35,813 nucleotides of DNA from Candidatus Woesearchaeota archaeon (lineage in GTDB: Archaea; Nanobdellota; Nanobdellia; Pacearchaeales; GW2011-AR1): NCBI GenBank assembly GCA_964600865.1, contig CAZRJP010000005.1, positions 1 to 35,813 on the forward strand. The letters are read 5' to 3'. The position numbers and the translations under genes are program-made. A model generated the notes under the pieces. That model made no database searches. It worked only from the letters and a program-made list of their open reading frames with translations, and had not been told where the DNA came from. This document shows, piece after piece, positions 7,027 through 24,454 of the stretch; position 1 is the first letter of the stretch, and every line of letters begins with the position of its first letter.

Positions 7027-8910
7027 ATGGACATTCTAAAATCAATAAAAGATAAGTTACACGTAAGTATCACTGACGCAGGTTTTGAAGGAGCAAATAT
7101 TGTTATTTATACAGATAATGAAAGATTCTTTAAGAACAGTGAAGGAAAGATTAAGGAAATTGTTAATGATCTAAAGAAGAGAATTGAATTAAGAGCAGAT
7201 CAAAAAATTCTTCCAGATAAAGAAGATGTTAAGAAACAAATTAAAGAGATTGTTCCAGAAGATGCAGAGGTAACTAATATCTTTTTTGATCATCATAGAA
7301 GTATAGTTATTATTGAGGCAAAAAAACCTGGTTTAGTTATAGGAAAAAAAGGTAGCATTATAGAAGAAATAAGAAAGAAAACACTATGGGTTCCTCAAGT
7401 TCAAAGAAGCTCATCAATAAAGAGTAAAATAACAGATAATATTAGGGAAGTTTTATATGCAAATAATAATTACAGAAGAAGATTTTTAAATAAAATAGGT
7501 AAGAAAATCTACAAAGAATGGTCTCCAGATAAAGTAGATGAATGGGTAAGAGTTACAGTACTTGGTGGAGGAAGGCAAGTAGGAAGAAGCTGTTTTTTAT
7601 TACAAACACCTAATTCAAAAATATTATTAGATTGTGGTGTTGATGTTGCAACAAGTGGGCCAAAAAAATTCCCTTATCTTAATGTTCCAGAATTTGATAT
7701 AAAGCAATTAGATGCAGTGATTATATCTCATGCTCATTTGGATCATGTGGGATTAGTCCCTTACTTATATAAAATGGGATATGAGGGTCCAGTTTATATG
7801 ACTAAACCTACAAGGGATATAGCAGCATTATTATCTCTAGATTTTATTGGTGTAGCTTACAAACAAGCATCTAAACCAATATTTGGTTCCAAAGATGTTA
7901 AAGAAATGGTGAAACATTCTATTTGCCTTAATTATAGGGAAGTTACTGATGTAACACCAGATATAAGAATAACAATGTATAATTCTGGTCATTGTTTAGG
8001 AAGTTCTATTATACATATAAATATTGGAAATGGACTTCATAATTTAGTTTATACTGGAGACCATAAATATGGAAAGTCAAGATTATTAAATCCAGCAGTT
8101 GCAAATTACCCAAGGGTTGAAACAGTTATAACTGAGGCAACTTATGGGTCTAAAAAAGATACACTTCCTAAAAGACAAGAATCTGAAAAACAACTTTTAG
8201 ATTATGTTAGAAATACAATAGAGAAAAAAGGAAAAGTCTTAATCCCTGAATTAGGTTTAGGTCGTGCACAAGAGACAATGTTAATTTTAGAAAATGCAAT
8301 GAAAAAAGGCAAATTACCTAAGATACCAATTTATATTGATGGTATGATATGGGATATTAATGCGATTCATACAGCTTATCCTGATTTTTTAAATAGTAAA
8401 GTAAGAAATGATATTTTTAAAGGAAATAATCCTTTTATTTCAGATATTTTTTCAAGAGTAGCATCACATCAGGAAAGAAAGAATGTTATTGAAGGAGGAC
8501 CTTGTGTTGTTTTGGCAACTTCAGGAATGCTTGTAGGTGGAGCATCTGTAGAGTATTTTAGAGAGTTTGCAGATAATAAGAATAATTCAATTATCTTTGT
8601 ATGTTATCAGGGTGTAGGAAGTTTAGGAAGAAAAGTTCAAGAAGGTATAAAACAAGTTAAGATGAATGTTGATGGGAAAGAAAGAAAAATAGATATTAAT
8701 TTAGAAACTCATTCTATTAGTGGATTAACAGCTCATTCTGGAAGAAACCAATTAATAAATTTCTTTAATAATATGAGACCTAAGCCAAAAAGAGTTTTAG
8801 TAAATCATGGAGAGGTTTCTAAATGTCTTGATTTAGCATCATCTATTTATAAGATTAAAAGAATAGAAACAAATGTTCCTAGAAATCTTGAAACATTACG
8901 TTTGAAATAA
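7027..8910 (+). CDS. fttA: aCPSF1/FttA (KH-domain beta-CASP ribonuclease, transcription termination factor)
   Basis: N-terminal KH region (FEGANIVIYT, KPGLVIGKKG), LGGGRQVGRSC, SHAHLDHVG, SGHCLGS, ATSGML, SGLTAHS, NHGE and C-terminal PRNLETLRL. Confidence 0.93.
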   Translation: MDILKSIKDKLHVSITDAGFEGANIVIYTDNERFFKNSEGKIKEIVNDLKKRIELRADQKILPDKEDVKKQIKEIVPEDAEVTNIFFDHHRSIVIIEAKKPGLVIGKKGSIIEEIRKKTLWVPQVQRSSSIKSKITDNIREVLYANNNYRRRFLNKIGKKIYKEWSPDKVDEWVRVTVLGGGRQVGRSCFLLQTPNSKILLDCGVDVATSGPKKFPYLNVPEFDIKQLDAVIISHAHLDHVGLVPYLYKMGYEGPVYMTKPTRDIAALLSLDFIGVAYKQASKPIFGSKDVKEMVKHSICLNYREVTDVTPDIRITMYNSGHCLGSSIIHINIGNGLHNLVYTGDHKYGKSRLLNPAVANYPRVETVITEATYGSKKDTLPKRQESEKQLLDYVRNTIEKKGKVLIPELGLGRAQETMLILENAMKKGKLPKIPIYIDGMIWDINAIHTAYPDFLNSKVRNDIFKGNNPFISDIFSRVASHQERKNVIEGGPCVVLATSGMLVGGASVEYFREFADNKNNSIIFVCYQGVGSLGRKVQEGIKQVKMNVDGKERKIDINLETHSISGLTAHSGRNQLINFFNNMRPKPKRVLVNHGEVSKCLDLASSIYKIKRIETNVPRNLETLRLK

Positions 8911-8945
8911 TTAATTCTTTAGATATTTGAATACTTATTTAAGAG

Positions 8946-8977
8946 CCCCAAATTTGAGAGAGTTTCAAATTTGAGGG
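8946..8977. promoter_or_regulatory. Palindromic operator-like element or hairpin directly upstream of a TATA box
   Basis: ccc-caaatttga-gagagtt-tcaaatttg-a-ggg: a 9-bp inverted repeat containing two self-palindromic CAAATTTG boxes 17 bp apart. Confidence 0.6.
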
Positions 8978-8982
8978 AGTAA

Positions 8983-8990
8983 TTTATATA
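8983..8990 (+). promoter_or_regulatory. TATA box of the peptide-hydrolase-ThiF operon
   Basis: TTTATATA ending 21 bp before the ATG at 9012, the spacing expected for a leaderless archaeal mRNA. Confidence 0.7.
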
Positions 8991-9011
8991 GTTAAAAAAG
9001 AAATAAAGTAT

Positions 9012-9161
9012 ATGAAAAAACTTGAAATTAAAGTAAGGAAAGCTATTGAAGAGAATAGACCAAAGGAATCTGATGTTAAAATCTCAGATACTTATGAGGG
9101 TTTTAGAGTTGTAGAAGACATTGCTTACAACGGCCCGACAAGTATAAGATATTGGATGTAA
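9012..9161 (+). CDS. Unlisted 49-aa peptide, candidate RiPP precursor: MKKLEIKVRKAIEENRPKESDVKISDTYEGFRVVEDIAYNGPTSIRYWM
   Basis: Translated by hand, ATG 9012 to TAA 9159-9161; TATA box at leaderless spacing; 13-bp gap to the next gene; first gene of an operon encoding an RRE-ThiF enzyme. Confidence 0.8.
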   Translation: MKKLEIKVRKAIEENRPKESDVKISDTYEGFRVVEDIAYNGPTSIRYWM

Positions 9162-9174
9162 TTTTTTTTGAAAA

Positions 9175-9744
9175 ATGGCTGAATTAATTTTTATAGGAGA
9201 TACTCACGGATTTATTGATGATTTTGATAAGCAGAAAGAAATTATTAATGAAACAAATCCAGAATTTGTTTTAGATGAAAGAATGGAGGATATTACTTTA
9301 GATTCAGAGGACAAATTTATCTCTTTTTTAAAGAAAAAACAGGTATCTAATATGACTTCTTTTAAGGAAGTAGAAGATTTAGTAAAATTTTGTAAAAAAA
9401 GAAGAATAAAGTTAATTGGAATTGATTTCAGAAATTTTGGATTTGATAAGAATTTGCAGAATAAGATAAAAAAACAGATTAAATTAAATGAGGAAGAGGA
9501 AACTCTTTTGCAAGAAATATTAAGAAAAAGAGAAAAGAGATATTTGGAAAAAATAAGAGAATATTCTAAAAAAACTGACAATGCAATAGTGATAATTTTA
9601 GGTTCCTGGCATCTTAGAGAGGAGTCATTAATTATGAAAAAATTAGAAAAATATAAGGTTATTTTTCCCTCAGATAAAAAAGGAAATCTCTTAATCAAAC
9701 CTAATTCTAGAGATAAAATAATTTATAGTGAAAAGACAAAATGA
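9175..9744 (+). CDS. TraB/Tiki/ChaN/EreA-superfamily hydrolase, possible peptidase
   Basis: Motif series IFIGDTH, FVLDE, LIGID, RE and IILGSWHL matches the GxxH...E...D...R...GxxH layout of this superfamily; no signal peptide; ATGA overlap with the ThiF gene. Confidence 0.65.
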   Translation: MAELIFIGDTHGFIDDFDKQKEIINETNPEFVLDERMEDITLDSEDKFISFLKKKQVSNMTSFKEVEDLVKFCKKRRIKLIGIDFRNFGFDKNLQNKIKKQIKLNEEEETLLQEILRKREKRYLEKIREYSKKTDNAIVIILGSWHLREESLIMKKLEKYKVIFPSDKKGNLLIKPNSRDKIIYSEKTK

Positions 9745-10781
9745 CAAAGAAGTTAAAACTTACAGAATCAACTTATATATTAAAAGAAAAAGAGGATATT
9801 TATGATGTTATTTTCACTTCTACTAGAAGAATAAAAAAATTTAAGGTAGATAATCTTGTAAAGGAAGTAATAGATAAGTTAAATTCAGAAGAAGACCATG
9901 ACATAAGATCATTAACGAAAGAATTATCAGGTGATTATAAACCTAAACAGGTTTTTTCATGTATAAATTCATTAGAAAGAGAGGGAGTAATTAAAGAATA
10001 TGGAGATACACAAATTGATGAGAAATATAATAATCAACTTTTATTTATTGATGAATTAACTAATTCGTGGGATGAGACTCTTGAACTTCAAGAGAAGATA
10101 AATCAATCTAAAATAGGTGTTTTTGGTGTTGGAGGTATTGGGACATGGATCGTAAATGGATTATCTCAAATTGGAATTGGAGAAATAAAAATATCAGATC
10201 CAGACACAATTGAAAGAAGTAATCTTAATAGACAATTATTCTTCGATTCTTCAGATGTTGGAGATTATAAGGTAGATGTAATAAAATCAAAAGTGAAGGA
10301 TTCAAAAATAAGGACCTTTAAAAAATTTGTTTCAAAAAAAGAGAATTTAGAGGAAATAGTTTTTGATTTAGATTTTATAGTCAACTGTGCCGATTCACCT
10401 TCAATTGCAGATACAACAAAAATAGTGGATGAATATGCCACAAAATATAATGTGCCTTATTCCGTTGCAGGAGGATATAATCTTCATTTGGGGATGGTAG
10501 GGCCAATAATTGTTCCAGGGAAAACAGCAACTTTTGAAGATTTTCTGGAGTATCAAAAGTCGCAAGATCCCTTTAATGATTTAATAAAAATAAAAGATAT
10601 ATCTAAAACAGGAAATCTTGGGCCTATTGCAGGTGCCGTATCTAATATACAGGTAATGGAAATTTTTAAGTATTTAATTGGGAAAGGAACATTAAATCTA
10701 AATAGATTTGCAGAAATAGATTTCATGAATTTTAATGTTTCTTGGAGAGAATTTGCAAATAAAGGGAAAAGTAAAAATTAA
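9741..10781 (+). CDS. ThiF/E1-like adenylyltransferase with N-terminal RRE-like domain (MccB/PaaA architecture)
   Basis: GVFGVGGIG, DPDTIERSNLNRQLFF, GDYKVD, NCADSP and VGPIIVPG; an extra ~90-aa N-terminus of three beta strands then three helices ending CINSLEREGVI. Confidence 0.85.
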   Translation: MTKKLKLTESTYILKEKEDIYDVIFTSTRRIKKFKVDNLVKEVIDKLNSEEDHDIRSLTKELSGDYKPKQVFSCINSLEREGVIKEYGDTQIDEKYNNQLLFIDELTNSWDETLELQEKINQSKIGVFGVGGIGTWIVNGLSQIGIGEIKISDPDTIERSNLNRQLFFDSSDVGDYKVDVIKSKVKDSKIRTFKKFVSKKENLEEIVFDLDFIVNCADSPSIADTTKIVDEYATKYNVPYSVAGGYNLHLGMVGPIIVPGKTATFEDFLEYQKSQDPFNDLIKIKDISKTGNLGPIAGAVSNIQVMEIFKYLIGKGTLNLNRFAEIDFMNFNVSWREFANKGKSKN

Positions 10782-10785
10782 AAAA

Positions 10786-10959
10786 ATGACAAGAAAATTA
10801 AATATTGAGGATATTATTCTATTCTTCATATTTTGGATTGTAACTTCCATAATATGGGCAATTTGGTTAAATGGAATTTTGGTTCCTATAACCGGGTTCG
10901 GATCTGCAGTTATTTTTATGATTATGTCAGATTTGTTAAATTTTATTGATAAGAAATAA
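10786..10959 (+). CDS. 57-aa two-TM membrane protein (possible immunity/export accessory)
   Basis: Start re-assigned to the ATG at 10786, 4 bp after the ThiF stop; IILFFIFWIVTSIIWAIWL and ILVPITGFGSAVIFMIM. Confidence 0.65.
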   Translation: MTRKLNIEDIILFFIFWIVTSIIWAIWLNGILVPITGFGSAVIFMIMSDLLNFIDKK

Positions 10960-10965
10960 TCTTTT

Positions 10966-11155
10966 TCTTGAAACATTACGTTTGAAATAATTAATTCTTT
11001 AGATATTTTAATATTTATTTGAAAGAGTAATTTATATAGTTAAAAAAGAAATAAAGTATATGAAAATGGCTGAATTAATTTTTATAGGAGATACTCATGG
11101 ATTTATTAATGATTTTGATAAGCAGAAAGAAATTATTAATGAAACAAATCCAGAA
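10966..11155 (+). repeat. Copy 2 of the direct repeat, lacking net 32 bp (operator) and 157 bp (peptide gene)
   Basis: Offsets to copy 1 step from 2080 to 2048 to 1891 across the three blocks; junctions fall at short microhomologies (gag, tgaaaa). Confidence 0.92.
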
Positions 11156-11236: not shown

Positions 11237-11303
11237 TTTGCCACCTCGTTTTTTAGTTAAAATAAGGTGGCTTTCTTATTTTATAATGGTTTCACCAAAG
11301 CCA
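11188..11303 (-). other. Structured intergenic element with nested and alternative inverted repeats
   Basis: gccacct(11240-11246)/aggtggc(11265-11271); tggcttt(11268-11274)/aaagcca(11297-11303); imperfect gctttttggctgaaacca(11188-11205)/tggtttcaccaaagc(11287-11301). Confidence 0.45.
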
Positions 11304-11344
11304 TTTTTAGAAAGATTTATATATTAATTATCTTTTGTCATTTT

Positions 11345-12076
11345 ATGGTGAAAACAATAAATGAAAAGGCAGTAATAATAGGATTTGATGGACTTCATAG
11401 ATCAGGGAAAGTTACTCAAATAAAGTTACTTCAAAATTATTTGAACAAAAGAAATAACCCAAACATAGTTATTAGGGGAGATGGTATGAGGCCAGGAGAT
11501 GGTTCTAAATTTTACGATGTTCCTTCAAAATGGTGGAGAAAAAATTTCGATTATTTCTTACAAAAACCTAAATCCCTGGAAGAGAACATATATAAGTTAA
11601 ATCTTAAATATCAAAGACTTAATAGAGAAGCAAAACTTGTTAGAGATTCTATTTTACCCAAAAAAGTATCAAAAAGTAAGTCAAAACTTGGCACAATAAT
11701 TATGGACAGAACATTTGTATCTAGATATTTTACTATGAAACAATACGTCCCAGATATTTCTTTAAAATCTGCATTGGATGTCAAAAATCCAAAAAATGAT
11801 AAGAAGGTAGAGATTATTATTCCTGATAAAACATTTATTTTAGAAGGAAGCAAAAAATTATTATTGCAAAGATTAGAAGATTCTGAAAAAAACAAGGCAA
11901 AATTAAAGTTTAAGAAAAAAATACTTCATGATCATTACGACTTATTTAATTCTGTAGTTAAGGAGATGAAAAAAAGAGAAGATATTATCTGTCTAGATGC
12001 TTCACTATCTCCAGAAGAGATTCATAAAAAAGTGTTAAGAGAATATTCTAAATTGGAAAAAAGAATAATTAATTAA
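11345..12076 (+). CDS. Thymidylate-kinase-like P-loop kinase, divergent
   Basis: Start re-assigned to ATG 11345 (TTTATATA at 11316-11323). IIGFDGLHRSGKVTQ P-loop, IIMDRTFVS DR motif, IIPDKTFILE, LLQRL and LDASLSPEEIHKKV. Confidence 0.75.
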   Translation: MVKTINEKAVIIGFDGLHRSGKVTQIKLLQNYLNKRNNPNIVIRGDGMRPGDGSKFYDVPSKWWRKNFDYFLQKPKSLEENIYKLNLKYQRLNREAKLVRDSILPKKVSKSKSKLGTIIMDRTFVSRYFTMKQYVPDISLKSALDVKNPKNDKKVEIIIPDKTFILEGSKKLLLQRLEDSEKNKAKLKFKKKILHDHYDLFNSVVKEMKKREDIICLDASLSPEEIHKKVLREYSKLEKRIIN

Positions 12077-12086
12077 TTTTCTTTAT

Positions 12087-13268
12087 TCATTTTATTTCTT
12101 TTAGGTTTATTTTTATTTGATTGACTATCCTTTCAGGACAATATGATTTATTAAACCTTATTATCCCCTCTTTTTCTAATTCTTTCAAATATCTACTTAC
12201 ATTAGGAACTTTTATGCTTAGTTCTTCTGCTATCCTTACAATTGAATTTTTCCCATCGCATAATTTTATTATTTCAAGGATATTTTGGCTTCTTAATGAA
12301 CCGGATAAGTCTTTTATTTCTTTTTGAGATTTAACTGTTTTTATTTTTGAAAGGGAATCTTTATGACCCAGCTTCTTTTTAATTTTTTTAAAGTATTTAA
12401 CAAAATCTCTTGCAATACTTGTTTTATTTTTCTTTAATTTAATATCTTTTATGACCTTATTAAATATAGAATTGTAAAGATAAGCTATTTTTTCCTTACT
12501 TAATTTATCTTGAACTAAAATATCATATATTTCATCATATTTCATATTAATAGAGGGGATTAAACCTTCCTTATTTTTTAATCTTATTTTTTTAGAATAT
12601 AGAAAAACAGGTTTTTCCCTTTTTATTATTTTTTCATCTCTCATACCTTTTTTTAAATGTTCAAATAACATTTTTCTTCTTTCACTTAAATAAAAAAAGT
12701 CTGCAGATCTTTTTGTTTCTTCAGGATAAATTAGGTGATAAAAATTTGCTAAAAATAAGTCACCAGTAAGTGTTGTAGCATGATTCAATGTCCATCTGCC
12801 TTTAATTCTATCTTTTATGATAAGTTTGGAAGCTAGTTGATTATATTTGATTAACATTCCTTTTTCAATGAATTTTTTCCAAGCATCAGAAAACTTAACT
12901 ATATGCATGCTTTTCTCTTTAACTCCTAATGAAATTAATAGTCTCCTATAATTCTCTATTTTTTTATTTATTAATTCTTCAGAAGAAATATCATTTGTAA
13001 TTTCTTGTTTAAAAATTGGATTAAAGTACATAAAAGGGTCTAGAATTACAATGAAGAGTTTTGCACCTAAATCTGAAAATTCTTTTAATTTTATTGAAAA
13101 ATTTATTAATTCATAATTTAGATTAATTGGAGTTACAGATAAGTAGATTGTAGGAGGGTCTTTTTCTTTTTTAGGACAATTTAATCTTTCTTTAAAATAA
13201 CATAAATCTTTTTCATTTAAGTCTTCTATTCCTTCTAATAATTTTTTTACTTGTTTGTTGGTTATCAT
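12087..13268 (-). CDS. Degenerate tyrosyl-tRNA-synthetase-like domain fused to a C-terminal ArsR-type winged HTH; probable regulator
   Basis: TIYLSVTP...KLKEFSDLGAKLFIVILDP, YRRLLISLGV...HIVKFSD, ADFFYLSERRK and KPVFLY follow archaeal TyrRS topology but HIGH and KMSKS are absent; the C-terminus has SIVRIAEELSIKVPNVSRYLKELEKEGII. Confidence 0.7.
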   Translation of the reverse strand: MITNKQVKKLLEGIEDLNEKDLCYFKERLNCPKKEKDPPTIYLSVTPINLNYELINFSIKLKEFSDLGAKLFIVILDPFMYFNPIFKQEITNDISSEELINKKIENYRRLLISLGVKEKSMHIVKFSDAWKKFIEKGMLIKYNQLASKLIIKDRIKGRWTLNHATTLTGDLFLANFYHLIYPEETKRSADFFYLSERRKMLFEHLKKGMRDEKIIKREKPVFLYSKKIRLKNKEGLIPSINMKYDEIYDILVQDKLSKEKIAYLYNSIFNKVIKDIKLKKNKTSIARDFVKYFKKIKKKLGHKDSLSKIKTVKSQKEIKDLSGSLRSQNILEIIKLCDGKNSIVRIAEELSIKVPNVSRYLKELEKEGIIRFNKSYCPERIVNQIKINLKEIK

Positions 13269-13327
13269 TTTTTTATAATCATATTTTGAAATTTATTTAT
13301 TGTTTATGTTTTTTTGATAACGAAATT

Positions 13328-13368
13328 GTTTATATATATCATTATCTTATAACTTATAGTATATAAAC
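13328..13368. promoter_or_regulatory. Inverted pair of TATA boxes in a divergent intergenic region
   Basis: gtttatata (13328-13336) and tatataaac (13360-13368) form a perfect 9-bp inverted repeat, giving TTTATATA on each strand. Confidence 0.5.
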
Positions 13369-13377
13369 GTTTTGAAA

Positions 13378-13974
13378 ATGTCAAAATCAATATTAAAAAA
13401 AGCAGCAGAAAAAACTCTTTGTGATGTTTTAGGATTTGATGAAGGGAGAATTTATTATTTGCTATTAACTAAAAATAATAAAAGAATAAAGGAACAATTT
13501 AGTTATAGTAAAAGATATAGATTATTAAAATCATTATTTGTATCTGGAGCCATAGGAAAAATAAAGAAACAAGAAAATAGTTCCTTTAAGTATAAGCTTC
13601 TTCCACCAAGTTTTCTCCATTATAGTGATAAAAATAAAGAAATTATTGAATATCTTGAGGGATTATATTTTAAGAATTATCAAAATTTCATTCAAACAGA
13701 TTTTTCACAGATTATTGTAAAAGATGATAAAGGATTGGTTTTATTCTTGTTAAAGTATGTTATGAAAAAGAGTGCAGAAATTTTCGGGAATAATTTCAAT
13801 CTTTCTTGTTTAGGAAAAAATAAAACTAAGGTGCAATTCAATAAAACAAAACAATCAAGAAGAAGAGGGATAATAGATAAAAGGTTTAAATTTGAATTTT
13901 CTGCAATTAAAGGAAAAAATTCTGATGATTACATAGGATATATATCAAACAATGAATTTAATGATTCTAATTAA
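13378..13974 (+). CDS. Divergent TrmB-like protein
   Basis: VLGFDEGRIYYLLL, YRLLKSLFVSGAI and FKYKLLPP echo the TrmB N-terminal pattern with a shortened HTH; GIID near the C-terminus; ATG 13378 preferred over TTG 13372. Confidence 0.55.
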   Translation: MSKSILKKAAEKTLCDVLGFDEGRIYYLLLTKNNKRIKEQFSYSKRYRLLKSLFVSGAIGKIKKQENSSFKYKLLPPSFLHYSDKNKEIIEYLEGLYFKNYQNFIQTDFSQIIVKDDKGLVLFLLKYVMKKSAEIFGNNFNLSCLGKNKTKVQFNKTKQSRRRGIIDKRFKFEFSAIKGKNSDDYIGYISNNEFNDSN

Positions 13975-14010
13975 TTTTATAAACTAAATTATCCTTTCTT
14001 TAAAAAGAGA

Positions 14011-15003
14011 ATGAAACATACATTTAAGATAACCACTATTTTATTAGCAATGTTTTTAGTTACACAGATAATTGGAGTAGTTGTTGTTTCTTCAGAGCCA
14101 TTAAAAGTTCAAACAGAAATAAATGGGACTGTTCAACAAGTAACAAATCCTTATCTAAGTTGGATGGATGTTCCTGAACCAGAAACACAACAAGATTTTA
14201 CATTTGCATTTGGCCAATTAATAATGGCTTTTTTTATTGCAATATCTTTACTAATATTTTTAATGAAGTTTAAAATTGAGATCTTCCTTAGGCTATGGTT
14301 TTTTGCAGTTGTAACAATTGCATTATTTTTATCTATTGTATCTTTTGAAAAAATTATCCCTGTAATGATAGAACTCAAAACCGCGATGTTTATTGCACTT
14401 GCAATATCTTTGTCTTTAGCATATTTAAAAATATTCAAAAGAGATATTTTTATTCATAATATGACTGAATTATTAATATACCCAGGAATTGCAGCTATTT
14501 TTGTTCCTATACTAAACTTTTATACTATTATTATATTATTGATATTAATTTCTATTTATGACATATGGGCTGTGTGGCACTCTGGTGTAATGCAAAAAAT
14601 GGCAAAATATCAAATAGATAAAGTAAAGGTATTCTCAGGATTTTTTGTTCCATATATGTCTGACAAAGTAAAAACTAAAATTCAAAAAATTAAGAAATCT
14701 AAGAAAAAGAATAAAAAAGTAAAAGTAAATGTAGCTGTTCTTGGTGGAGGAGACATAATATTTCCAATAATAACAGCAGGAATCATGTATGGATTTTTTA
14801 GTAAAACACCTATTTTAGCAGCATCTTTAGTAATATTAGGGGCAACAAGTGGATTAGCATATTTGTTTTTCTTTGCAAAAAAGAGAAAATTCTATCCTGC
14901 TATGCCTTTTATAACAACAGGAATTTTAATTGGAATATTTTTAACATGGATAATTTATACTAAGATATTAGGATTCACATTAAATATATGGCCTTTTATT
15001 TAG
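14011..15003 (+). CDS. Presenilin/signal-peptide-peptidase family (A22) intramembrane aspartyl protease
   Basis: About 9 TM helices, ISIYDIWAVW (YD), LGGGDIIFP (GxGD) and YPAMPF (PAL-like). Confidence 0.9.
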   Translation: MKHTFKITTILLAMFLVTQIIGVVVVSSEPLKVQTEINGTVQQVTNPYLSWMDVPEPETQQDFTFAFGQLIMAFFIAISLLIFLMKFKIEIFLRLWFFAVVTIALFLSIVSFEKIIPVMIELKTAMFIALAISLSLAYLKIFKRDIFIHNMTELLIYPGIAAIFVPILNFYTIIILLILISIYDIWAVWHSGVMQKMAKYQIDKVKVFSGFFVPYMSDKVKTKIQKIKKSKKKNKKVKVNVAVLGGGDIIFPIITAGIMYGFFSKTPILAASLVILGATSGLAYLFFFAKKRKFYPAMPFITTGILIGIFLTWIIYTKILGFTLNIWPFI

Positions 15004-15329
15004 GATTTAGAATCTGCATGAATACTTTTTAGATTATATTCACAACGATTTTCCAAACTTTCTTTTGTTGTAGGTTCAATATTAGATCCAGGAAGATATA
15101 TCAATGAGTCTCCTTTCTTTAGAGTATAAACTGGTTCGTTTTTAGTATATTTTACTCCACTAAAGGGGTTTAAAACACCATAATCATTGTCAATGATTTT
15201 AATCAATTTACCACTAAAACTTTTATTTGGAGAGTTTGAAGGAAAAATAACTATCCATTTATTCAAATAATCTTTCCATAACTTTTTTCTTTTAGGTAAT
15301 CCAAATTTATTTCCCATAATTATGAACAT
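15000..15329 (-). CDS. Hypothetical protein, possibly a small beta-barrel; start may be 15317
   Basis: 109-aa ORF filling the gap; LWKDYLNKWIVI...FSGKLIKI resembles the start of an Sm-like barrel (weak). Confidence 0.6.
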   Translation of the reverse strand: MFIIMGNKFGLPKRKKLWKDYLNKWIVIFPSNSPNKSFSGKLIKIIDNDYGVLNPFSGVKYTKNEPVYTLKKGDSLIYLPGSNIEPTTKESLENRCEYNLKSIHADSKS

Positions 15330-15425
15330 TTTTTAACATATTTAAATCTTTTTATTGTATTCACTAAGGAAAGGTAACAAATAGGAACCTTTATAAAAGA
15401 AAAAGACTTATTTTTTAAGAAGAAA

Positions 15426-16205
15426 ATGATAGTAAAAAAAGTATTAATAAGTAAAATAAAGGATTATTTTGACTTAAATGTATATGAAACAAAGGTATGG
15501 CTAGCTTTGCTCAGTAAGGGAATAGCGTCTGCTGGAGAGGTTTCTACACTTTCTGGGGTACCAAGGTCTAGGACATATGATGTTTTAGAATCATTAGAGA
15601 AAAAAGGGTTTGCTATAGAGAAATTAGGGAAACCAATAAAATATCTTGGAGTTAAACCACAAGTAATTCTTGAAAAATTAAAGAATAATGTTAAGAAAAG
15701 AGCAGAATCAAGGATAAAAAACCTAACAAAGATTAAAACAACTGATGAATTTGAAAAGATTAAAAGTCTTTATAATGAAGGGATTAGTCCAGTTAAGAGA
15801 GAAGAAGTCTCTGCATCATTAAAAGGAAAATCAAACATTTCTAATCATTTAAGAGAAATATTACAAAATGCAGAAAAACAAGTAATTATATGCACTAATG
15901 CTAAGGAATTAGCTGCTAAGTTTAAGTTATTCAAGAAAACAATTGGAAGATTAAAAAACAACAACATAAAGGTTGAAATGGCTCTTTCAGGAACAAAGAA
16001 GCTAATCAAACAACTTTCAGAGAAGTTAGATGTGGATATAATAAAAGTAGATATTGATGCTAAATTTTTCATAGTAGATAGAAAAGAAATATTATTTTAT
16101 TTGTCTAAAAATCCTCAACAAGAAAATATTGCCATATGGCTTAATTCAGAGTTCTTTTCTGAAGCATTTGCAGGTCTTTTTGAATTGGCAGTTAAAGGTG
16201 AATAA
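15426..16205 (+). CDS. TrmB-family transcriptional regulator
   Basis: FDLNVYETKVWLALL, SGVPRSRTYDVLESLEKKGF and GKPIKY; C-terminal effector domain KFFIVDRKEILF. Confidence 0.92.
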   Translation: MIVKKVLISKIKDYFDLNVYETKVWLALLSKGIASAGEVSTLSGVPRSRTYDVLESLEKKGFAIEKLGKPIKYLGVKPQVILEKLKNNVKKRAESRIKNLTKIKTTDEFEKIKSLYNEGISPVKREEVSASLKGKSNISNHLREILQNAEKQVIICTNAKELAAKFKLFKKTIGRLKNNNIKVEMALSGTKKLIKQLSEKLDVDIIKVDIDAKFFIVDRKEILFYLSKNPQQENIAIWLNSEFFSEAFAGLFELAVKGE

Positions 16206-16207
16206 AA

Positions 16208-16489
16208 ATGCCAAGAGAATTATATAAGCAAACAACATATGATACGAATGGAAAAAGAGTGGAATATGGATTAGAACCAGGAACATTACAGCCAGATTTA
16301 GGCTCTTTAGCAAATTATATGGTAACAGAGTTTCCAAGCCCTATTTTAAGAAATTTATATGGAGATGAACAGAATGCAATAGTATTACATGAAAGATTAG
16401 AAGGTGGAATTGATGCAATTGTTAGAGAAGGATTAAGCAAAAAAGAACTTCATGATCTTGCACTTAAAATTTCAATTAAAAGCAGATAA
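16208..16489 (+). CDS. Hypothetical protein
   Basis: 93 aa, 2 bp after trmB, preceded by the SD-like AGGTGA. Confidence 0.7.
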   Translation: MPRELYKQTTYDTNGKRVEYGLEPGTLQPDLGSLANYMVTEFPSPILRNLYGDEQNAIVLHERLEGGIDAIVREGLSKKELHDLALKISIKSR

Positions 16490-16500
16490 AAGATAATAAA

Positions 16501-17109
16501 ATGTCAAAAAAAAGAACAATCCCTCAAGTATACCAGTATCCTGTTGTAGTTACAAACAAAGGTATTTGGTTAGTAAAACCTGAAAATCATCAAAAAGTAA
16601 GAGCTGCTTCTGCTAAAGATATTTTAGATTCTTACATTTCAGATAGAGGCATCTTTCACGCTGTTGAAGACCATGATTATGAATCAAAGATTGTTAGAGG
16701 TAAAAACACCAAAAGATCAAAAAAATTCAGGTATAATTATGTTTCAGTAATAGACAGTTTAACTGGAAATAATATAATGAACATTTATCCAGAAGGTCAA
16801 AGACAAAAACCAGTTGAAGAAAGACTAGTTAATCTTGATTTTTCTTTTGGGAAAAAAGGGAAATCTTTAGCATATGTTTTAAATGGGGAACAAGGAGAAT
16901 TATTTAAATCTCATGCTGGGCCAACCCCACCTGACATGGCATATAACCATAATGATAGTAGAGTTTATTTTTGTGGAAGAAGGGTAGCTAGATTTGACAA
17001 AGGAGAGAGGATAAGAGATCTTACAACTCTTTCTGCTAAAAAGCTAGATAGACTTCTTAGAAGAAAAAATCCTAAGTTATTACAAAGATGGAGATCCTTA
17101 GGGGAATAA
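16501..17109 (+). CDS. Hypothetical basic, beta-rich protein
   Basis: 202-aa ORF at operon spacing; no motif recognised. Confidence 0.7.
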   Translation: MSKKRTIPQVYQYPVVVTNKGIWLVKPENHQKVRAASAKDILDSYISDRGIFHAVEDHDYESKIVRGKNTKRSKKFRYNYVSVIDSLTGNNIMNIYPEGQRQKPVEERLVNLDFSFGKKGKSLAYVLNGEQGELFKSHAGPTPPDMAYNHNDSRVYFCGRRVARFDKGERIRDLTTLSAKKLDRLLRRKNPKLLQRWRSLGE

Positions 17110-17113
17110 GAAA

Positions 17114-17326
17114 ATGACAGAATATAAAAGATTTGAAATAGTTAAAACAGATTTTGGAAGCGAAGGACAAATCATAGGTGTAAGAAGGCCCATTTTAAGA
17201 TTTTTTAGGAAGGTATATGATGTAAGAGTAGAATATAAAACAGCATTAGGTAAAACAAGATCAAGGATTATGTCTTTTAGTGAAAATCAATTAGAAAAAT
17301 CATCTAAAAATAAAAAGGCAGAATAA
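17114..17326 (+). CDS. Hypothetical small basic protein, possibly SH3-like
   Basis: 70 aa, 4 bp after the previous gene; pattern FEIVKT...EGQIIG...YDVRV...FSENQLEK. Confidence 0.6.
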   Translation: MTEYKRFEIVKTDFGSEGQIIGVRRPILRFFRKVYDVRVEYKTALGKTRSRIMSFSENQLEKSSKNKKAE

Positions 17327-18631
17327 TTATTTTTTTTCAACTTTTTCTAAATCAAAATCAGTAATGCTCATATCTTCCATCAGTTTCTTATTACTTTTAT
17401 CTTTTTTCCATTTATTAAGAAATTCTTTAGCTGTAAAATCAATTTTTTCCTTAGAATATAATCTATGATTTTTAGTGTGTGTTTTTTTGTGTTTTTTCTT
17501 AAATGCAGCTGCATTTTTTTCATCTATTTCAAATGGACCTTTATGAATAACTTCTTTTTTATTTTTAACAGCAAAATAACAAAGAGCTTCTTTACCTCCT
17601 AAATAATCAAATCCTTTTTTCTTTATCTCAAAAAATTTCTTAATTTTACCTCCAAGATATTTATAAAATTTTAATAATTTACTTCCAGCAATATCTCCTT
17701 CTTGTTTTTTTGTTTTTATTCTTATTTTCAACAACTCAAATTTATACCTATTACAATAAGATTTAATTTTATGGAAATTTAATGTTTTTCTTTCAAAACT
17801 TTCCATTTTAGGATTTTTTAAGAATTTTTTACATGCTTTTTGAAATTTTTTAAATGTTTTATTACTTAAGGCAGCTAAAACATTTCTTTGTTTATATGTA
17901 GGATCAATAAGTATTATAGGAGAAGCTAATTTAGAGGAGTTCATATCCATCAAAACTCTTTTTCTACCCCTATACTGTTTTTCTATATCTATAACAAGCT
18001 TCTTATCCTCAATATTTAATTTAGACATTTTTTTAATAAACTTCTTAAAACCCCCGTAGTAATATATTAGCAATTCTAATCCATATCCAGAAAATCCTCT
18101 TATATATGATTCAGCACCATAGCATTTATTTGCATAACAAAATGATTTCGCTATTTTTATATCATCTAATATGCCTTCCTTTTTCACTTTTCTTTGAACA
18201 TAATAAACATGACTATATGATAAATCAGTAATATTTCTTGATAATTGAGGATTAATAACTTTTGCAACAGGAACAATCTCTAAATAAAAATTATCTTTAA
18301 GTTTTATTCTAAAATAATCCCTTGAACCATGTATCTTTTTTGTTTTCTCATCTTCAAGTATTTTTTTAAGTAACTCTGATAATCTATCATCCTGATAAGA
18401 AGAATCAAATCTCACAAAAACATCAATATCATACTTTCCTTTTTTTATAAGAGTTTTTTTTGCAAAACTTCCTCCAACAAAAATTTCTGCTTTAATCTTA
18501 TGTTCATCTATTTTTTTCTTAAATTTTTCCGTATATTCTTTAACACTCTTTTCAATGAATTTTGCGTCCTTTTTAGGAGGATTTATCTTCTCTAAAACTT
18601 TTTCAAGAATATTATTTACTTTTTTTGCCAT
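17327..18631 (-). CDS. cca: Archaeal class I CCA-adding tRNA nucleotidyltransferase
   Basis: FVGGSFAKKT, YDIDVFV, EIVP, TDLSYSH, YGAESYIRGFSGYGLELLIYYYGGF and IDPTYKQRNV. Confidence 0.93.
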   Translation of the reverse strand: MAKKVNNILEKVLEKINPPKKDAKFIEKSVKEYTEKFKKKIDEHKIKAEIFVGGSFAKKTLIKKGKYDIDVFVRFDSSYQDDRLSELLKKILEDEKTKKIHGSRDYFRIKLKDNFYLEIVPVAKVINPQLSRNITDLSYSHVYYVQRKVKKEGILDDIKIAKSFCYANKCYGAESYIRGFSGYGLELLIYYYGGFKKFIKKMSKLNIEDKKLVIDIEKQYRGRKRVLMDMNSSKLASPIILIDPTYKQRNVLAALSNKTFKKFQKACKKFLKNPKMESFERKTLNFHKIKSYCNRYKFELLKIRIKTKKQEGDIAGSKLLKFYKYLGGKIKKFFEIKKKGFDYLGGKEALCYFAVKNKKEVIHKGPFEIDEKNAAAFKKKHKKTHTKNHRLYSKEKIDFTAKEFLNKWKKDKSNKKLMEDMSITDFDLEKVEKK

Positions 18632-18668
18632 AAATTACCTAAGAAATCCATATTTATAAATCATACAC

Positions 18669-19076
18669 TTATTTTGGCTTTTTTATCTCTTTTAGGCTCT
18701 TTGTACCCTGTTTTAGTGTAGATGCTAGGTCAATTATATACTTACCTTCTTCCATTTTATACACTAATGGACGGTCTTTTCTAAATAAATTAACAATATC
18801 TATTTCAAATTTACCCTCTCCTATGGCTCTTACTGATTCAAAATCTAATATAACTGGGGCAGATGTATCTGTAATCCCTGCTATTTCTCTAATGTCTTTT
18901 TCAATCTTTTTCTTTTCTTTGTCTGGAATTTGTTTAGCAGGATTTTCCATTAATTTTTTGAACTTTTTGTCTTTTATATAAAAAAAGAAATGACTTTCAC
19001 ATTTACTACAACCTTCTAATAATTCTTTACTTCCTGCAGCATAAACTTTTCCGCAATGTACGCATTGGTGTGGCAT
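18669..19076 (-). CDS. oapC: Zn-ribbon protein OapC (DUF2072)
   Basis: MPHQCVHCGKVY...LLEGCSKCESHFFFY, ESVRAIGEGKFEID and EEGKYIIDL. Confidence 0.85.
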   Translation of the reverse strand: MPHQCVHCGKVYAAGSKELLEGCSKCESHFFFYIKDKKFKKLMENPAKQIPDKEKKKIEKDIREIAGITDTSAPVILDFESVRAIGEGKFEIDIVNLFRKDRPLVYKMEEGKYIIDLASTLKQGTKSLKEIKKPK

Positions 19077-19164
19077 TTTTCTTTTTTGTCTCTCTTTTAT
19101 TTTTTATATCAATTCAAAATATGAATTATATTAATTAATAAAGATGAATAATACTTATAAATTT

Positions 19165-19620
19165 TTACTTATTCAAGAACAATTCAATTTTCTTAGGATT
19201 TCTTTTTATCTCTTTAACAACTGTTGCAGGACCAATAATTGTAACAGCTCCTAAATCTCCATTAGAAAGAACATTAACAAGTTTGTTCCTCATTTTATTT
19301 AGCATATTTTTTTCATTGTTATTTTTATTATCAATAACTGCTAACTCAATTCCTTTAAAATTTTTAACATGGTCAATCATTGCCATAGTATCTCCAATAA
19401 GTCTTGTTTCTTCTTCAGGTTTTAGTCTTCCCTGTAAAATTAAAATATTGCTTCCAAGAATTATATCTAATATCTTTTTAATTCTTCCATTACTGTCTAA
19501 ACCTCTTATTTCTGAGAAAGGCATAAATCTTATAGAAAATCCCTTTATTTTCTTAGGTTTTTTCTTCTTGGACTTTTTCTTTTTAGAACGTTTTTTCTTT
19601 GATTTTTTTTTCTTACTCAT
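19165..19620 (-). CDS. oapB: DUF2073 protein OapB with Lys-rich N-terminal tail
   Basis: RIKKILD...ILILQGRLKPEEETRLI...TM...FKGIE...TIIGPA; lies between oapA and oapC. Confidence 0.85.
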   Translation of the reverse strand: MSKKKKSKKKRSKKKKSKKKKPKKIKGFSIRFMPFSEIRGLDSNGRIKKILDIILGSNILILQGRLKPEEETRLIGDTMAMIDHVKNFKGIELAVIDNKNNNEKNMLNKMRNKLVNVLSNGDLGAVTIIGPATVVKEIKRNPKKIELFLNK

Positions 19621-19657
19621 ATTATCCTCTTTTTCTATTTATTTGTATTTTTCTGTC

Positions 19658-19778
19658 TTTTATCCTGGTTTGATTTTTTTATTTGTTTTCCTTTTATTTT
19701 CTGGTTCTGTCTTTTATCCTGGTTTACTCTAAATTTTTTTGAAAAATTTATTTGTCTAATCTTTTTTGAAAAGATTAT
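19658..19778. repeat. Dispersed intergenic repeat with TATCCTGGTTT boxes and two palindromes
   Basis: 19658-19752 matches 28439-28533 (95 bp, 2 mismatches) and 19752-19778 matches 28563-28589; palindromes at 19730-19750 and 19757-19777. Confidence 0.9.
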
Positions 19779-19827
19779 CTATATATTATGTGAAATATAC
19801 TTTTAATTGTTACTATATTCTCCTTTT

Positions 19828-20469
19828 TTAAGCATTTTTCGCAAGTTTAAATACTGCCTCATAAAACTCCTCTAAATTTTTTCCATACTTAGCACTTACT
19901 CCCACTGTTTCATATTCTGGAAAAGCAGATTCTACTTTTTTAATATCTGATTTTTTTAAATCAGTTTTATTAGCAACTATTAATACAGGTATTTTTCTTG
20001 CTACAAGATTACCAATAATTGTAATATTAACCTGATTATAAGGATTTTTTGTGCTGTCTAAAACAACAACTACTAGGTCCATATCATCTAACCATTTGAT
20101 ACTTTCTACAACTCCTTGTGTAGCTTCTTTAGCTCTTTTTTTAGAACTTTTCTTTTTCATTTTATACTTTAAGAAGTCTTCATAATCAATTCTAGTAGCT
20201 ATTCCAGGAGTATCAACCATTTTAAAAGTTATTTTCTTGCCCTTATATTCTATTTCTACTTTTTCTTTAAATTGAACATTTCTAGTTTCATGAGGTATTT
20301 TACTAACACTCCCTATTTCTTCTCCAGTAAAGTCCTTACATATCCTATTTGCTAAACTAGTTTTTCCTGCATTTGGAGGACCGTAGAAACCCAATTTCAT
20401 GTCCTTTTTGTTCTTGAACATTCTAGAGAAAATCCCTTTAAAGAAGTTCTTAAAAACTTTTATCACCAT
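19828..20469 (-). CDS. oapA: Era-like GTP-binding protein OapA
   Basis: G1 GPPNAGKTSLANRI, G2 PHETR, G3 DTPG, G4 NKTD, G5 SAK, plus RAKEATQGVVESIKWLD. Confidence 0.9.
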   Translation of the reverse strand: MVIKVFKNFFKGIFSRMFKNKKDMKLGFYGPPNAGKTSLANRICKDFTGEEIGSVSKIPHETRNVQFKEKVEIEYKGKKITFKMVDTPGIATRIDYEDFLKYKMKKKSSKKRAKEATQGVVESIKWLDDMDLVVVVLDSTKNPYNQVNITIIGNLVARKIPVLIVANKTDLKKSDIKKVESAFPEYETVGVSAKYGKNLEEFYEAVFKLAKNA

Positions 20470-20517
20470 ATTACTTTTTGAGGTTTTAACTTTATTAAGG
20501 TTTGTATGATTTAATGT

Positions 20518-23283: not shown

Positions 23284-23305
23284 ATATAAAAACAGCTTTT
23301 GAGTT

Positions 23306-24397
23306 TTATAAATATTCTTTTTTTATGAGAATAAAATAAATCCCTGCAATTAAGAGAATACTGAGAATTAATCCATATGCATTAAAGAAATCTACCTTAA
23401 TTTGAGAAGGACAAGGAATTGGTTGTGTTTCCCACGGAAGACAATCCTCTTGATTAGAAGTATATTTTACCATAAAAAATTGTTCTCCTGCAGAGCAATC
23501 ACCTATCTTTTCCTCGTTTGGATAACTACATTCTGTATTTATAGATTTATCAGTACAATCTTTTGAATTTTCTGGGTCAGAAGTTTCTGCTGTTCTTTTT
23601 TGAACACACTTTCCTGTAGAGTCATCCCATCCACAAAAAGTATTTGATATAAAATAACAATCACTCCCTTCTGGGTCTTCTCTTCTATACTCTCCTCCAC
23701 CAACACTATTATTATCATCCTCACAAGTTGTTTGTGTTTCATAATTAGAACATAAACTTTCTTCTTGGTCAATAAAAAGAGTTTCATTTATTGTAACTAC
23801 ACCATTATCATAATCTTTACTATCTATTTCCCATGAAGATAATTCTGCTTCAGCCTTAAAATAGAATTCATCAGTATCTGATGCTTCAAATTCTTCACTA
23901 GTAACTAACCACTCTGATTTAATATCTCCATTTTCAACTTCCTCATTTTTTTCAGTTATTACATCTCCAAACCACTTTTTTTCTTTAACAAATATGGTTA
24001 CTTCATCTCCGTTTGATAATTCTTCCACATTCTTTATTATCATATAGATAGTGGTTTCATCTAAAACAACATTAACATCTGTATCAGGATTGGTTCCATC
24101 TGAACTCCAAAAAGCTATCTCATCATCGTCATCTCCCCCTGCACAATCAGGATCTACCTCATCGCAAACAGCACCAAAGTCCTCAGGGCAATACCCATCG
24201 TCTTCACCACAATAAACACAAGGATTTGAAGTTATTTCTGGAATATAAGCACCATGAATATCCGGATCACACTCCCCTGTTTCTGGATCAGTAGGATTAC
24301 AAATAGGATGACAATTATCTTGGGAAGAAACAAAAATTATATTACTAAATAATATTAAACATAATACTAAAATTAATCCAGCCCCTTTTTTAATCAT
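23306..24397 (-). CDS. Cys-rich, highly acidic secreted protein with C-terminal membrane anchor
   Basis: Signal peptide, about 18 Cys in two clusters, D/E-rich, ending VDFFNAYGLILSILLIAGIYFILIKK. Confidence 0.82.
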   Translation of the reverse strand: MIKKGAGLILVLCLILFSNIIFVSSQDNCHPICNPTDPETGECDPDIHGAYIPEITSNPCVYCGEDDGYCPEDFGAVCDEVDPDCAGGDDDDEIAFWSSDGTNPDTDVNVVLDETTIYMIIKNVEELSNGDEVTIFVKEKKWFGDVITEKNEEVENGDIKSEWLVTSEEFEASDTDEFYFKAEAELSSWEIDSKDYDNGVVTINETLFIDQEESLCSNYETQTTCEDDNNSVGGGEYRREDPEGSDCYFISNTFCGWDDSTGKCVQKRTAETSDPENSKDCTDKSINTECSYPNEEKIGDCSAGEQFFMVKYTSNQEDCLPWETQPIPCPSQIKVDFFNAYGLILSILLIAGIYFILIKKEYL

Positions 24398-24454
24398 AAA
24401 ATAAAATAGGATTTGAGTTTTATAAAGTTTCTTATGAGGAGCATTTTAGAATTA

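Follow-up and report, generated by a model that had tools for sequence, protein, structure and literature searches.

A tyrosyl-tRNA synthetase-like protein lacking the ATP-site motifs and joined to an ArsR-type winged helix: a putative archaeal regulator

The Gene and Its Genome

The gene described here lies on contig CAZRJP010000005.1 of a Candidatus Woesearchaeota archaeon (NCBI GenBank assembly GCA_964600865.1), in a stretch of 35,813 nucleotides that was analysed as a whole and is called the window. Its product combines a body resembling tyrosyl-tRNA synthetase (TyrRS) with a C-terminal winged helix-turn-helix (wHTH) in a single polypeptide (Table 1). The gene lies in DNA of only 23.6% GC, in which an open frame of 1182 nucleotides is very unlikely to have arisen by chance. 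The surroundings of the gene are archaeal, with FttA/aCPSF1 at 7027–8910 and a TrmB regulator at 15426–16205.

The genome (669 kb in 42 contigs, 87% complete) was found to encode both a canonical TyrRS and a canonical tryptophanyl-tRNA synthetase (TrpRS), and the intact tyrS that the first-pass annotation, made from the sequence alone, had proposed to look for is present. The TyrRS (354 aa) scored 179 bits and carries KMSSS, GGVDQRK and the tyrosine-site residues, and the TrpRS (374 aa) scored 149 bits. A six-frame PF00579 search of the genome matched only these two genuine genes and left the fusion gene unmatched. Similarly, all 16 other genomes that carry a member of the family gave two or more PF00579 matches that exceeded the cut-off, and a full-length TyrRS open reading frame (ORF) was retrieved from 16 of the 17 carrier genomes; in the genome G367 the remaining matches are two pieces at contig ends, which were left unclassified. 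The genuine TyrRS of the window's genome (L001:1438-2502, contig C1) has a Ser in place of the first His of HIGH ('SVAY'). The same Ser is found in the TyrRS of the genomes G330 and G207 ('SIAY'), giving three of the 16 aligned TyrRS in all, and the other signature motifs are intact.

Table 1. Features of the fusion gene and its immediate surroundings, in window coordinates.
Feature	Coordinates	Strand	Residues	Remarks
Whole gene, TyrRS-like domains fused to wHTH	12087..13268	minus	393 aa + stop	ATG start; from the ORF list
N-terminal helix, Rossmann fold and CP1-like insertion	12540..13268	minus	1-243	Predicted equivalent of the TyrRS catalytic domain
Helical domain	12351..12539	minus	244-306	Predicted equivalent of the TyrRS anticodon-binding domain; from model and hhalign
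ArsR/SmtB-type wHTH	12111..12332	minus	313-386
Predicted homodimer interface	12765..13037	minus	78-168	Residues 78-82 and 127-168; CP1-like region
NLNYEL, at the HIGH place	13107..13124	minus	49-54	Family consensus T-P-N-Y
NMKYD, opposite K-M-S-S-S (KMSKS place)	12534..12548	minus	241-245	Met alone retained
Conserved Asp	13038..13040	minus	D77	Sole invariant family residue (56/56); aligned with the near-invariant Asp ending the TyrRS 'ADxHA' strand
Conserved acidic residue	12759..12761	minus	D170	D in 50/56, E in 4/56; at the position of a TyrRS Gln (M. jannaschii Q155; AlbC E182)
Divergent intergenic region	13269..13371	.		Candidate promoter/operator
Divergent neighbour	13372..13974	plus	200 aa	Weakly TrmBL2/TrmB-like
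Convergent neighbour, dTMP-kinase-like P-loop protein	11267..12076	plus		Partial match; PF02223 2.8e-8; TIGR00041 34.5 bits against a cut-off of 83

Fold and Remote Homology of the TyrRS-Like Body

A HMMER scan of 1.84 billion cluster representatives retrieved 87 proteins at E ≤ 1e-3, 36 of them at E ≤ 1e-10, most being 380–430 aa long and matching over their full length. From these, 56 full-length members were picked by length and coverage and aligned (alignment A1), and the family counts given below refer to this set. Their mean identity to the window protein is 18–30%, one relative reaching 72%, and a homologous-protein search with the window protein recovered only itself and that relative.

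The AlphaFold2 model of the window protein, built with A1 as input, was confident (pLDDT 91.9, pTM 0.78). All Foldseek matches listed from the PDB were TyrRS or TrpRS (best E = 5.2e-9, probability 1.00), the model aligning from residue 1 to residue 301 or 306 with whole TyrRS chains. A search against representative structures, independent of Foldseek, gave the highest score to archaeal/eukaryotic TyrRS (20.3), followed by archaeal/eukaryotic TrpRS (18.9), bacterial TyrRS (16.3), cyclodipeptide synthases (11.7, with 189 residues aligned) and other class I synthetases (about 10). On the strength of these two structure searches, residues ~1–300 are assigned as the counterpart of a complete TyrRS of the archaeal type, anticodon-binding domain included, and the tail as an ArsR-type wHTH. 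The Rossmann fold, the CP1 insertion and the C-terminal anticodon-binding domain of the archaeal/eukaryotic type were all recognised in the window protein.

The relationship was also detected at the level of profiles. When A1 was compared with 16 genuine TyrRS from the carrier genomes (A3), the match had a probability of 93.7% with E = 1.9e-7 over 271 columns (family 28–325 against TyrRS 47–358), and comparison with 15 TrpRS from the same source (A4) gave 80.6%, E = 1.3e-5 and 178 columns. The family profile additionally matched the genuine TyrRS of the genome G006, an ORF 58% identical to the TyrRS of the window's genome, at a per-genome E of 3.5e-6. Searches with plain sequence were far less effective. 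No PF00579 match was found in the Pfam scan of the window protein, even at E ≤ 10, and it therefore falls below the gathering threshold of that family; the member in G367 reached 18.5 bits, under the cut-off of 21.1. Human TyrRS was reached by the family profile among PDB sequences at E ~0.3 only, and phmmer of the window protein against the PDB returned no synthetase, with an AsnC regulator at E = 0.006. BLASTP alignments to the synthetases of the same genome were collinear but weak (TrpRS, E = 7e-4, residues 64–183 against 94–206; TyrRS, E = 0.6, residues 35–128 against 40–128). The likeness to TyrRS is termed remote because plain sequence searches see no synthetase, and it is nevertheless significant by profile and by fold. 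The earlier statement that about 300 residues track archaeal TyrRS segment by segment is borne out by the model, by Foldseek and by the profile-profile match, and the proposed comparison of the N-terminal region with TyrRS and TrpRS returned a class I synthetase fold.

Loss of the Catalytic Motifs and a Conserved Pocket

The register of the motifs was taken from a profile-profile alignment (94.1%, E = 1.2e-7). Y52 occupies the place of the first His of HIGH and is Tyr in 49 of the 56 members. The residues S195-E196-R197-R198-K199-M200 face G-V-D-Q-R-K of TyrRS, in columns that are unconserved across the family, and at the KMSKS place M242 is kept in 42/56. None of the 56 members presents K[ML]S[KAS]S, and none presents HxG[HY] within its first 90 residues. 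The ATP site is thus dismantled, since the HIGH, GxDQRK and KMSKS places hold other residues, and the amino-acid site bears a new conserved polar set. The first-pass annotation had proposed a pseudo-synthetase with NLNYEL at the HIGH place, LSERRK at the GxDQRK place and no KMSKS; the overall description of a complete, catalytically stripped TyrRS paralogue joined to an ArsR-type wHTH holds, as do the readings of the first and last motifs, whereas the second, although rightly called lost, had been placed one residue off, SERRKM being the aligned segment.

According to PMC3105412, the tyrosine-binding residues of the M. jannaschii TyrRS are Y32, G34, Y151, Q155, D158 and Q173, with Q155 binding the amino group of the substrate, and G35, Y178 and E182 of the cyclodipeptide synthase AlbC superpose on TyrRS G34, Y151 and Q155, S37 being the AlbC nucleophile. 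This tyrosine-binding set is not retained by the family. The position of Y32 is Tyr or Phe in 42/56 and that of G34 is occupied by Ser (S44) in 35/56, followed two residues further by T46 (33 Thr and 7 Ser). The position of Y151 holds Gln (Q166) in 35/56 and Thr in the window copy, that of Q173 holds Arg or Lys (residue 198) in 34/56, and at D158 the alignment is uncertain. Besides D77 and D170 (Table 1), conserved residues aligned with the pocket include S127 (52/56), which falls on the Ser of the TyrRS 'GSE', W130 (47/56) and E183 (41/56).

The Winged Helix and the Predicted Dimer

The C-terminal domain was matched in Pfam by HTH_24 (E = 3.2e-8, residues 328–371), by HTH_5/ArsR (3.4e-5) and by other HTH models. 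NCBIfam returned HTH-type models, among them the Csa3 wHTH TIGR01884 (E = 5.3e-5), and the PADLOC models for CARF-wHTH, Csa3 and CasR matched the same domain with E values from 1.9e-5 to 3.5e-4. HTH_5 was detected in 50/56 members and HTH_24 in 45/56, and among solved proteins the nearest by sequence are repressors of the ArsR family (E = 2.3e-6). Positions of the recognition helix and the wing are conserved (S358 in 53/56, Y360 in 42/56, R380 in 31/48). The window protein accordingly has a winged helix-turn-helix of the HTH_5 type, as had been read from its last ~75 residues.

Two-copy prediction with A1 gave a score of 0.43 (runs 0.38, 0.45 and 0.43), compared with 0.00 for the best control. 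Of 30 benchmark proteins solved as pairs, 20 attained this score, as did one of 23 that were solved as single chains. At least 93% of contacts were common to the runs, with a partner pLDDT of at least 80, and the contacts were confined to residues 78–168, none falling in the wHTH. TyrRS dimers have already been solved, and the result may therefore reflect the likeness to them. A TyrRS-like homodimer is supported by these predictions, although not demonstrated.

Integrity and Distribution of the Fusion

Intact ORFs of 376–419 aa were found at all 19 loci for which neighbourhoods were collected. The Nei-Gojobori ratio of nonsynonymous to synonymous substitution (dN/dS) was 0.093 for the loci L032 and L074, the sole measurable pair (80% aa identity), at a dS of 1.2 that is near saturation. 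By part, the ratio was 0.084 for residues 1–320 and 0.121 for the remainder, and both parts of the fusion are under strong purifying selection. A contig of the probable source run covers 11900–13500 with zero differences, and a second sample of the same study provided two pieces, 11900–12538 and 12571–13092, again with zero differences, the first of them crossing the domain junction near 12350. The fusion is real and not an artefact; the assembly or frameshift error that the first-pass annotation had named as a possible refutation is excluded by the 56 aligned members, the 19 intact loci and the contig of the second sample over the junction. A sensor-like domain and a DNA-binding domain are conserved jointly in one polypeptide across these members and loci, which is the arrangement of a one-component regulator in which ligand binding is presumed.

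Three shorter members (310–344 aa) without an HTH match may be stand-alone or truncated forms, and several proteins of 210–480 aa match the family solely in the linker and wHTH part. A 153-aa ORF at L038:8447-8908 (G354:C23; profile 260–408) likewise matches this part alone; it and a full-length family gene 2.5 kb away are on opposite strands.

Of 41 close relatives, two genomes of the same genus, G000 and G002, are alone in carrying full-length copies, the remaining matches being wHTH-only proteins or genuine TyrRS. In an evenly drawn sample of the phylum, the family (E ≤ 1e-10) was present in 15 of 400 good-quality genomes and 15 of 281 genera, all of one class, and two of the 400 carried two copies. 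The G002 copy and the window protein share only 29% identity, compared with 70% for TyrRS and 80% for TrpRS between the two genomes. The family is fast-evolving and accessory, and its occurrence in Nanoarchaeota is patchy. No match was found by tblastn in 50,697 phage records, and the ESM Atlas search gave no usable match. In the ten clusters checked, the only public name is 'helix-turn-helix transcriptional regulator [archaeon]'.

Neighbouring Genes

The neighbourhoods comprised 19 loci in 18 genomes, with flanks of 1.5–9 kb, as far as the contigs reached. A B12-binding radical SAM enzyme lies nearby at 6/19 loci (L032, L033, L037, L039, L074 and L079), a CYTH protein within 2.2 kb at four (L032, L035, L076 and L079), a HAD hydrolase at four, a DHH/DHHA1 phosphoesterase at two and a dTMP-kinase-like protein at three, that of the window included. 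At least one of these five types is found at 11/19 loci. The assignments of the radical SAM genes at L074 and L079, the DHH gene at L077, the kinase at L035 and the Lrp genes at L041 and L080 were made by BLAST clustering alone. At four loci (L032, L037, L039 and L074) the radical SAM gene directly adjoins the family gene on its 3' side and shares its strand, in an apparent operon; L032 and L074 are close kin, so that not all four are independent. The CYTH family gave 19 matches in 10 of 17 genomes, four of them within 2.2 kb of a family gene against ~0.1 expected at random, by rough arithmetic that assumes genomes of ~1 Mb and random placement and is weakened by genome kinship. The window locus presents no radical SAM, CYTH, HAD or DHH gene, and no CYTH match was found in its genome (87% complete). 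Taken together, the recurrent neighbours hint at a nucleotide-like metabolite.

The family gene is often divergently transcribed beside another regulator. An AbrB/MazE-domain regulator was found at 4/19 loci, a Lrp/AsnC regulator at 3/19 and a TrmB-like protein at 2/19.

At L032 (6644–9119, G207:C56), B12 radical SAM, CYTH and dTMP-kinase-like genes stand in a row straight after the family gene. In PADLOC, the radical SAM enzyme and the kinase correspond to a candidate defence pair, PDC-M51A/B (4.4e-14 and 3.9e-25), and the kinase also matches VakA; the name 'PDC-M51' was not found in the literature searched. At L034 (7031–8364, G330:C19), an ORF that weakly resembles NDK and a radical SAM protein of 309 aa lie straight downstream of the family gene, followed by a DegT-type aminotransferase. 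This radical SAM protein is MoaA-like (134 bits, below the cut-off) and matches prokaryotic viperin more weakly. A defence role was considered and not adopted: the PADLOC matches of the window protein come through its wHTH only, the PDC-M51-like pair is confined to the L032 lineage in a test that left out L074, and the L034 radical SAM protein scores better as MoaA-like than as viperin. The loci examined showed no CRISPR-Cas genes.

In the window, the divergent neighbour of the fusion gene has no Pfam matches and at least 34 database homologues with 31–64% identity. Its model was confident (pLDDT 92.6) and weakly resembled TrmBL2/TrmB (best Foldseek E = 1.6e-3, probability 0.97). The protein is 48% identical to an ORF adjoining the family gene in G002, where the relative orientation differs. 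Its family is present in three of the 41 relatives, all of the same genus, with two copies each in G000 (including G000:C41:1351-1884) and G002, and it was not detected in the 15 carrier genomes that are more distant. In G002 (L075, G002:C32), where the family gene has the opposite orientation, the homologue of this neighbour is directly followed by a homologue of window ORF 24455–25894, and ~10.5 kb of the window (13975–24454) are therefore absent at that place.

On the other side, a ThiF-type ORF (9741–10781) ends 1.3 kb from the fusion gene, and among solved proteins it is closest to PaaA (6.3e-21) and MccB (1.2e-19). The likeness to MccB noted in the first-pass annotation is correct, but the link to the fusion gene that had been suggested from it is not conserved and was rejected, as a homologue lies near a family gene at none of the 18 other loci and the homologues in G002 and G207 sit on other contigs. 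This enzyme carries an N-terminal extension and, together with a 49-aa ORF (9013–9162), a weakly TraB/PrgY-like ORF (9175–9744) and a hydrophobic 74-aa ORF (10735–10959), makes 9013–10959 a possible small peptide-modification cluster. Near-identical direct repeats of ~90 nt, AT-rich and promoter-like, are located at 8900–9016 and 10978–11066. The first copy has an extra insert of ~32 nt (~8944–8977) containing CAAATTTGAG twice, and after the second comes a shortened copy of the 5' part of ORF 9175–9744, which runs into a stop.

Possible Function

The reading that we favour, by a modest degree, is that of a dimeric one-component transcription factor in which a dead TyrRS serves as the sensor, probably in response to a ligand. 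A duplicated TyrRS of the archaeal/eukaryotic type would have lost HIGH, GxDQRK and KMSKS, the motifs that handle ATP, and with them tyrosyl-adenylate synthesis and tRNA charging, while the fold, the dimer interface and the pocket at the old amino-acid site would have been kept. This pocket would have been relined by a conserved polar set (S44, T46, N51, Y52, D77, S127, W130, D170, E183 and D190). The TyrRS-like body would then act as the dimerisation and sensing module, and the helical linker would present the two C-terminal ArsR-type winged helices to DNA, so that a small molecule in the pocket could alter DNA binding and thereby target-gene transcription. That the protein binds DNA and senses a ligand, and what this ligand is, are inferred from the architecture, the conservation of the pocket and the purifying selection. 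The ligand is possibly an amine-bearing or a nucleotide-derived metabolite, the former suggested by the conserved carboxylate where TyrRS and cyclodipeptide synthases hold the amino group of the substrate and the latter by the recurrent phosphate- and nucleotide-handling neighbours.

Several observations weigh against this proposal. The retention of the whole anticodon-binding-domain fold would be unneeded for a sensor of small molecules and leaves room for RNA binding, and the conserved Ser/Thr and carboxylates of the pocket would fit an enzyme equally well; the pocket-lining status of these residues is, moreover, derived from the TyrRS alignment and not from inspection of the model. At nine conserved positions the window copy does not follow the consensus (Y47P, T49N, P50L, W76L, N79F, E106N, Q166T, Y202F and P229R), which may mean that its pocket is altered or relaxed. 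The DNA target was not found in the search of the upstream region, since scanning of 13240–13400 for an operator gave only imperfect AT-rich inverted repeats (70–90% complementary), none convincing. TTTGAAAT, common to the upstream, 8900 and 10980 regions, was not enriched (13 found, 15.5 expected). The sigma-70 promoter scan, with a model not applicable to archaea, stayed at the level of shuffled sequence, and no Rfam family was detected in the window. Searches of genome contigs and metagenome contigs with the window protein returned no related locus, so that there is no close orthologue with DNA for promoter footprinting.

An enzyme of new specificity built on the TyrRS scaffold, such as an aminoacyl-tRNA-dependent transferase resembling cyclodipeptide synthases, is a rather unlikely explanation, although the most credible of the alternatives; the wHTH would then serve autoregulation, as in BirA and NadR, or hold a nucleic-acid substrate. 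By a register that comes from a remote alignment, the AlbC E182 (TyrRS Q155) position is Asp or Glu in 54/56 members, and Thr or Ser occurs in 40/56 two residues past the place of the conserved Gly, which corresponds to the AlbC nucleophile S37. The radical SAM gene abutting the family gene at 4/19 loci and the HAD, CYTH and DHH enzymes recurring nearby are also in keeping with an enzyme. On the other hand, the position of AlbC Y178 is Gln in 35/56 and Thr in the window copy, the putative nucleophile is mostly Thr and not Ser, and no cyclodipeptide-synthase family was present among the 22 Pfam matches listed at E ≤ 10. Furthermore, cyclodipeptide synthases lack the C-terminal domain and a dimer interface of the TyrRS kind, both of which the family keeps. 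Retention of the entire TyrRS architecture under purifying selection, with its anticodon-binding-domain fold and with a domain appended at the C-terminus, could instead point to a protein that binds tRNA or other RNA, the dead synthetase still docking tRNA. Bacterial TyrRS has an additional tRNA-binding domain at its C-terminus, and the wHTH would replace it. This is considered improbable, as the C-terminal blocks that are invariant in TyrRS (R291, G296, G297, H317, P318, D320 and K322) face gaps or unconserved family columns in the hhalign alignment, and both sequence and structure assign the wHTH to the ArsR DNA-binding type.

The divergence of the window copy from the consensus and the low identity of the copy in G002, a genome of the same genus, would also fit a decaying relic of a duplicated tyrS, or an active but very divergent TyrRS. 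Either seems highly implausible in view of the intact ORFs at 19/19 loci, the dN/dS of 0.09 for one pair, the 87 cluster representatives and the confident fold, and of the absence of the three ATP-site motifs in 56/56 members together with the presence of at least two canonical PF00579 genes in 17/17 carrier genomes. A bolder version of the regulator, to which we give little credence, is that the dead TyrRS still recognises a tRNA, an aminoacyl-tRNA or an aminoacyl-nucleotide-like molecule and relays its state to DNA through the winged helices, as an archaeal protein counterpart of the T-box, or that it is the switch of the adjacent radical-SAM, kinase and CYTH nucleotide-modifying sets, one of which matches PDC-M51.

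If the preferred interpretation as a ligand-responsive transcription factor is correct, an entire synthetase body can find a second use as the part of a transcription factor that senses and dimerises. DPANN archaea have tiny genomes and depend on hosts, and a new type of sensor domain would be added to their thin known repertoire of regulators; the identity of the ligand could reveal a metabolite that these symbionts monitor. The protein would be relevant to synthetase evolution and to archaeal regulation, even though enzyme-derived sensors with a wHTH and regulatory pseudo-synthetases are kinds already known. The window protein is small, confidently folded and predicted to be a dimer, and would be straightforward to assay.

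Comparison with Known Systems

A TyrRS-like domain fused to an HTH was not found to be described in a full-text literature search, the scope of which left out ~1.7 million PMC articles and subscription journals, and the fusion is not mentioned in the portions consulted of PMC2922099, PMC3105412 and a 2026 bioRxiv survey of the phylum. The earlier remark that no class I TyrRS-HTH regulator has been described therefore stands within the literature searched.

The closest known proteins are the archaeal/eukaryotic-type TyrRS (class Ic; 2cyb, 1j1u and 2cya), with which the family shares profile-level homology, a predicted dimer through the CP1 region, and the 'ADxHA' Asp, the 'GSE' Ser and the 'KMSKS' Met. 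In contrast to them, the family lacks HIGH, GxDQRK and KMSKS, has Gln and Asp in place of the tyrosine-binding Tyr and Gln, stays below the PF00579 threshold, bears an extra C-terminal wHTH and coexists with a normal TyrRS. The cyclodipeptide synthases AlbC, Rv2275 and YvmC similarly have a class Ic-like Rossmann and CP1 fold that has lost the ATP motifs, with a carboxylate in the place of TyrRS Q155; these enzymes, however, have neither the anticodon-binding domain nor the TyrRS-type dimer interface, as described in PMC3105412, nor a wHTH. The family, with its tRNA-binding-type C-terminal domain and its predicted TyrRS-type dimer, differs from their pattern of monomers or non-TyrRS dimers devoid of that domain.

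Csa3 and CasR (CARF and wHTH) also present a Rossmann-like sensor followed by a C-terminal wHTH, and their wHTH models match the window protein, but the sensor of the family is TyrRS-like and not CARF. In ArsR/SmtB metalloregulators the dimer forms through the ArsR helices, whereas here the wHTH is an appendage of ~75 residues and the dimer is predicted to form through the TyrRS-like body.

Synthetase paralogues that have traded catalysis for regulation are few and well studied, examples being the inactive HisZ and the HisRS-like domain of GCN2, which serve sensing or regulation. Both are class II HisRS derivatives and regulate an enzyme (HisG) or a kinase, whereas in the present family a class I TyrRS derivative is joined directly to a DNA-binding domain, a combination of which, to our knowledge, no other example exists. 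BirA and NadR likewise unite a nucleotide-handling enzyme fold and an HTH in one polypeptide, with the state of the ligand controlling transcription. Their enzyme domain is active and their HTH is N-terminal, BirA being class II-like, in contrast to the family described here, which has lost the catalytic motifs and carries its wHTH at the C-terminal end. Nevertheless, the adenylyltransferase domain of NadR and the class I synthetases belong to the same HUP superclass, according to the grouping given in PMC2922099.

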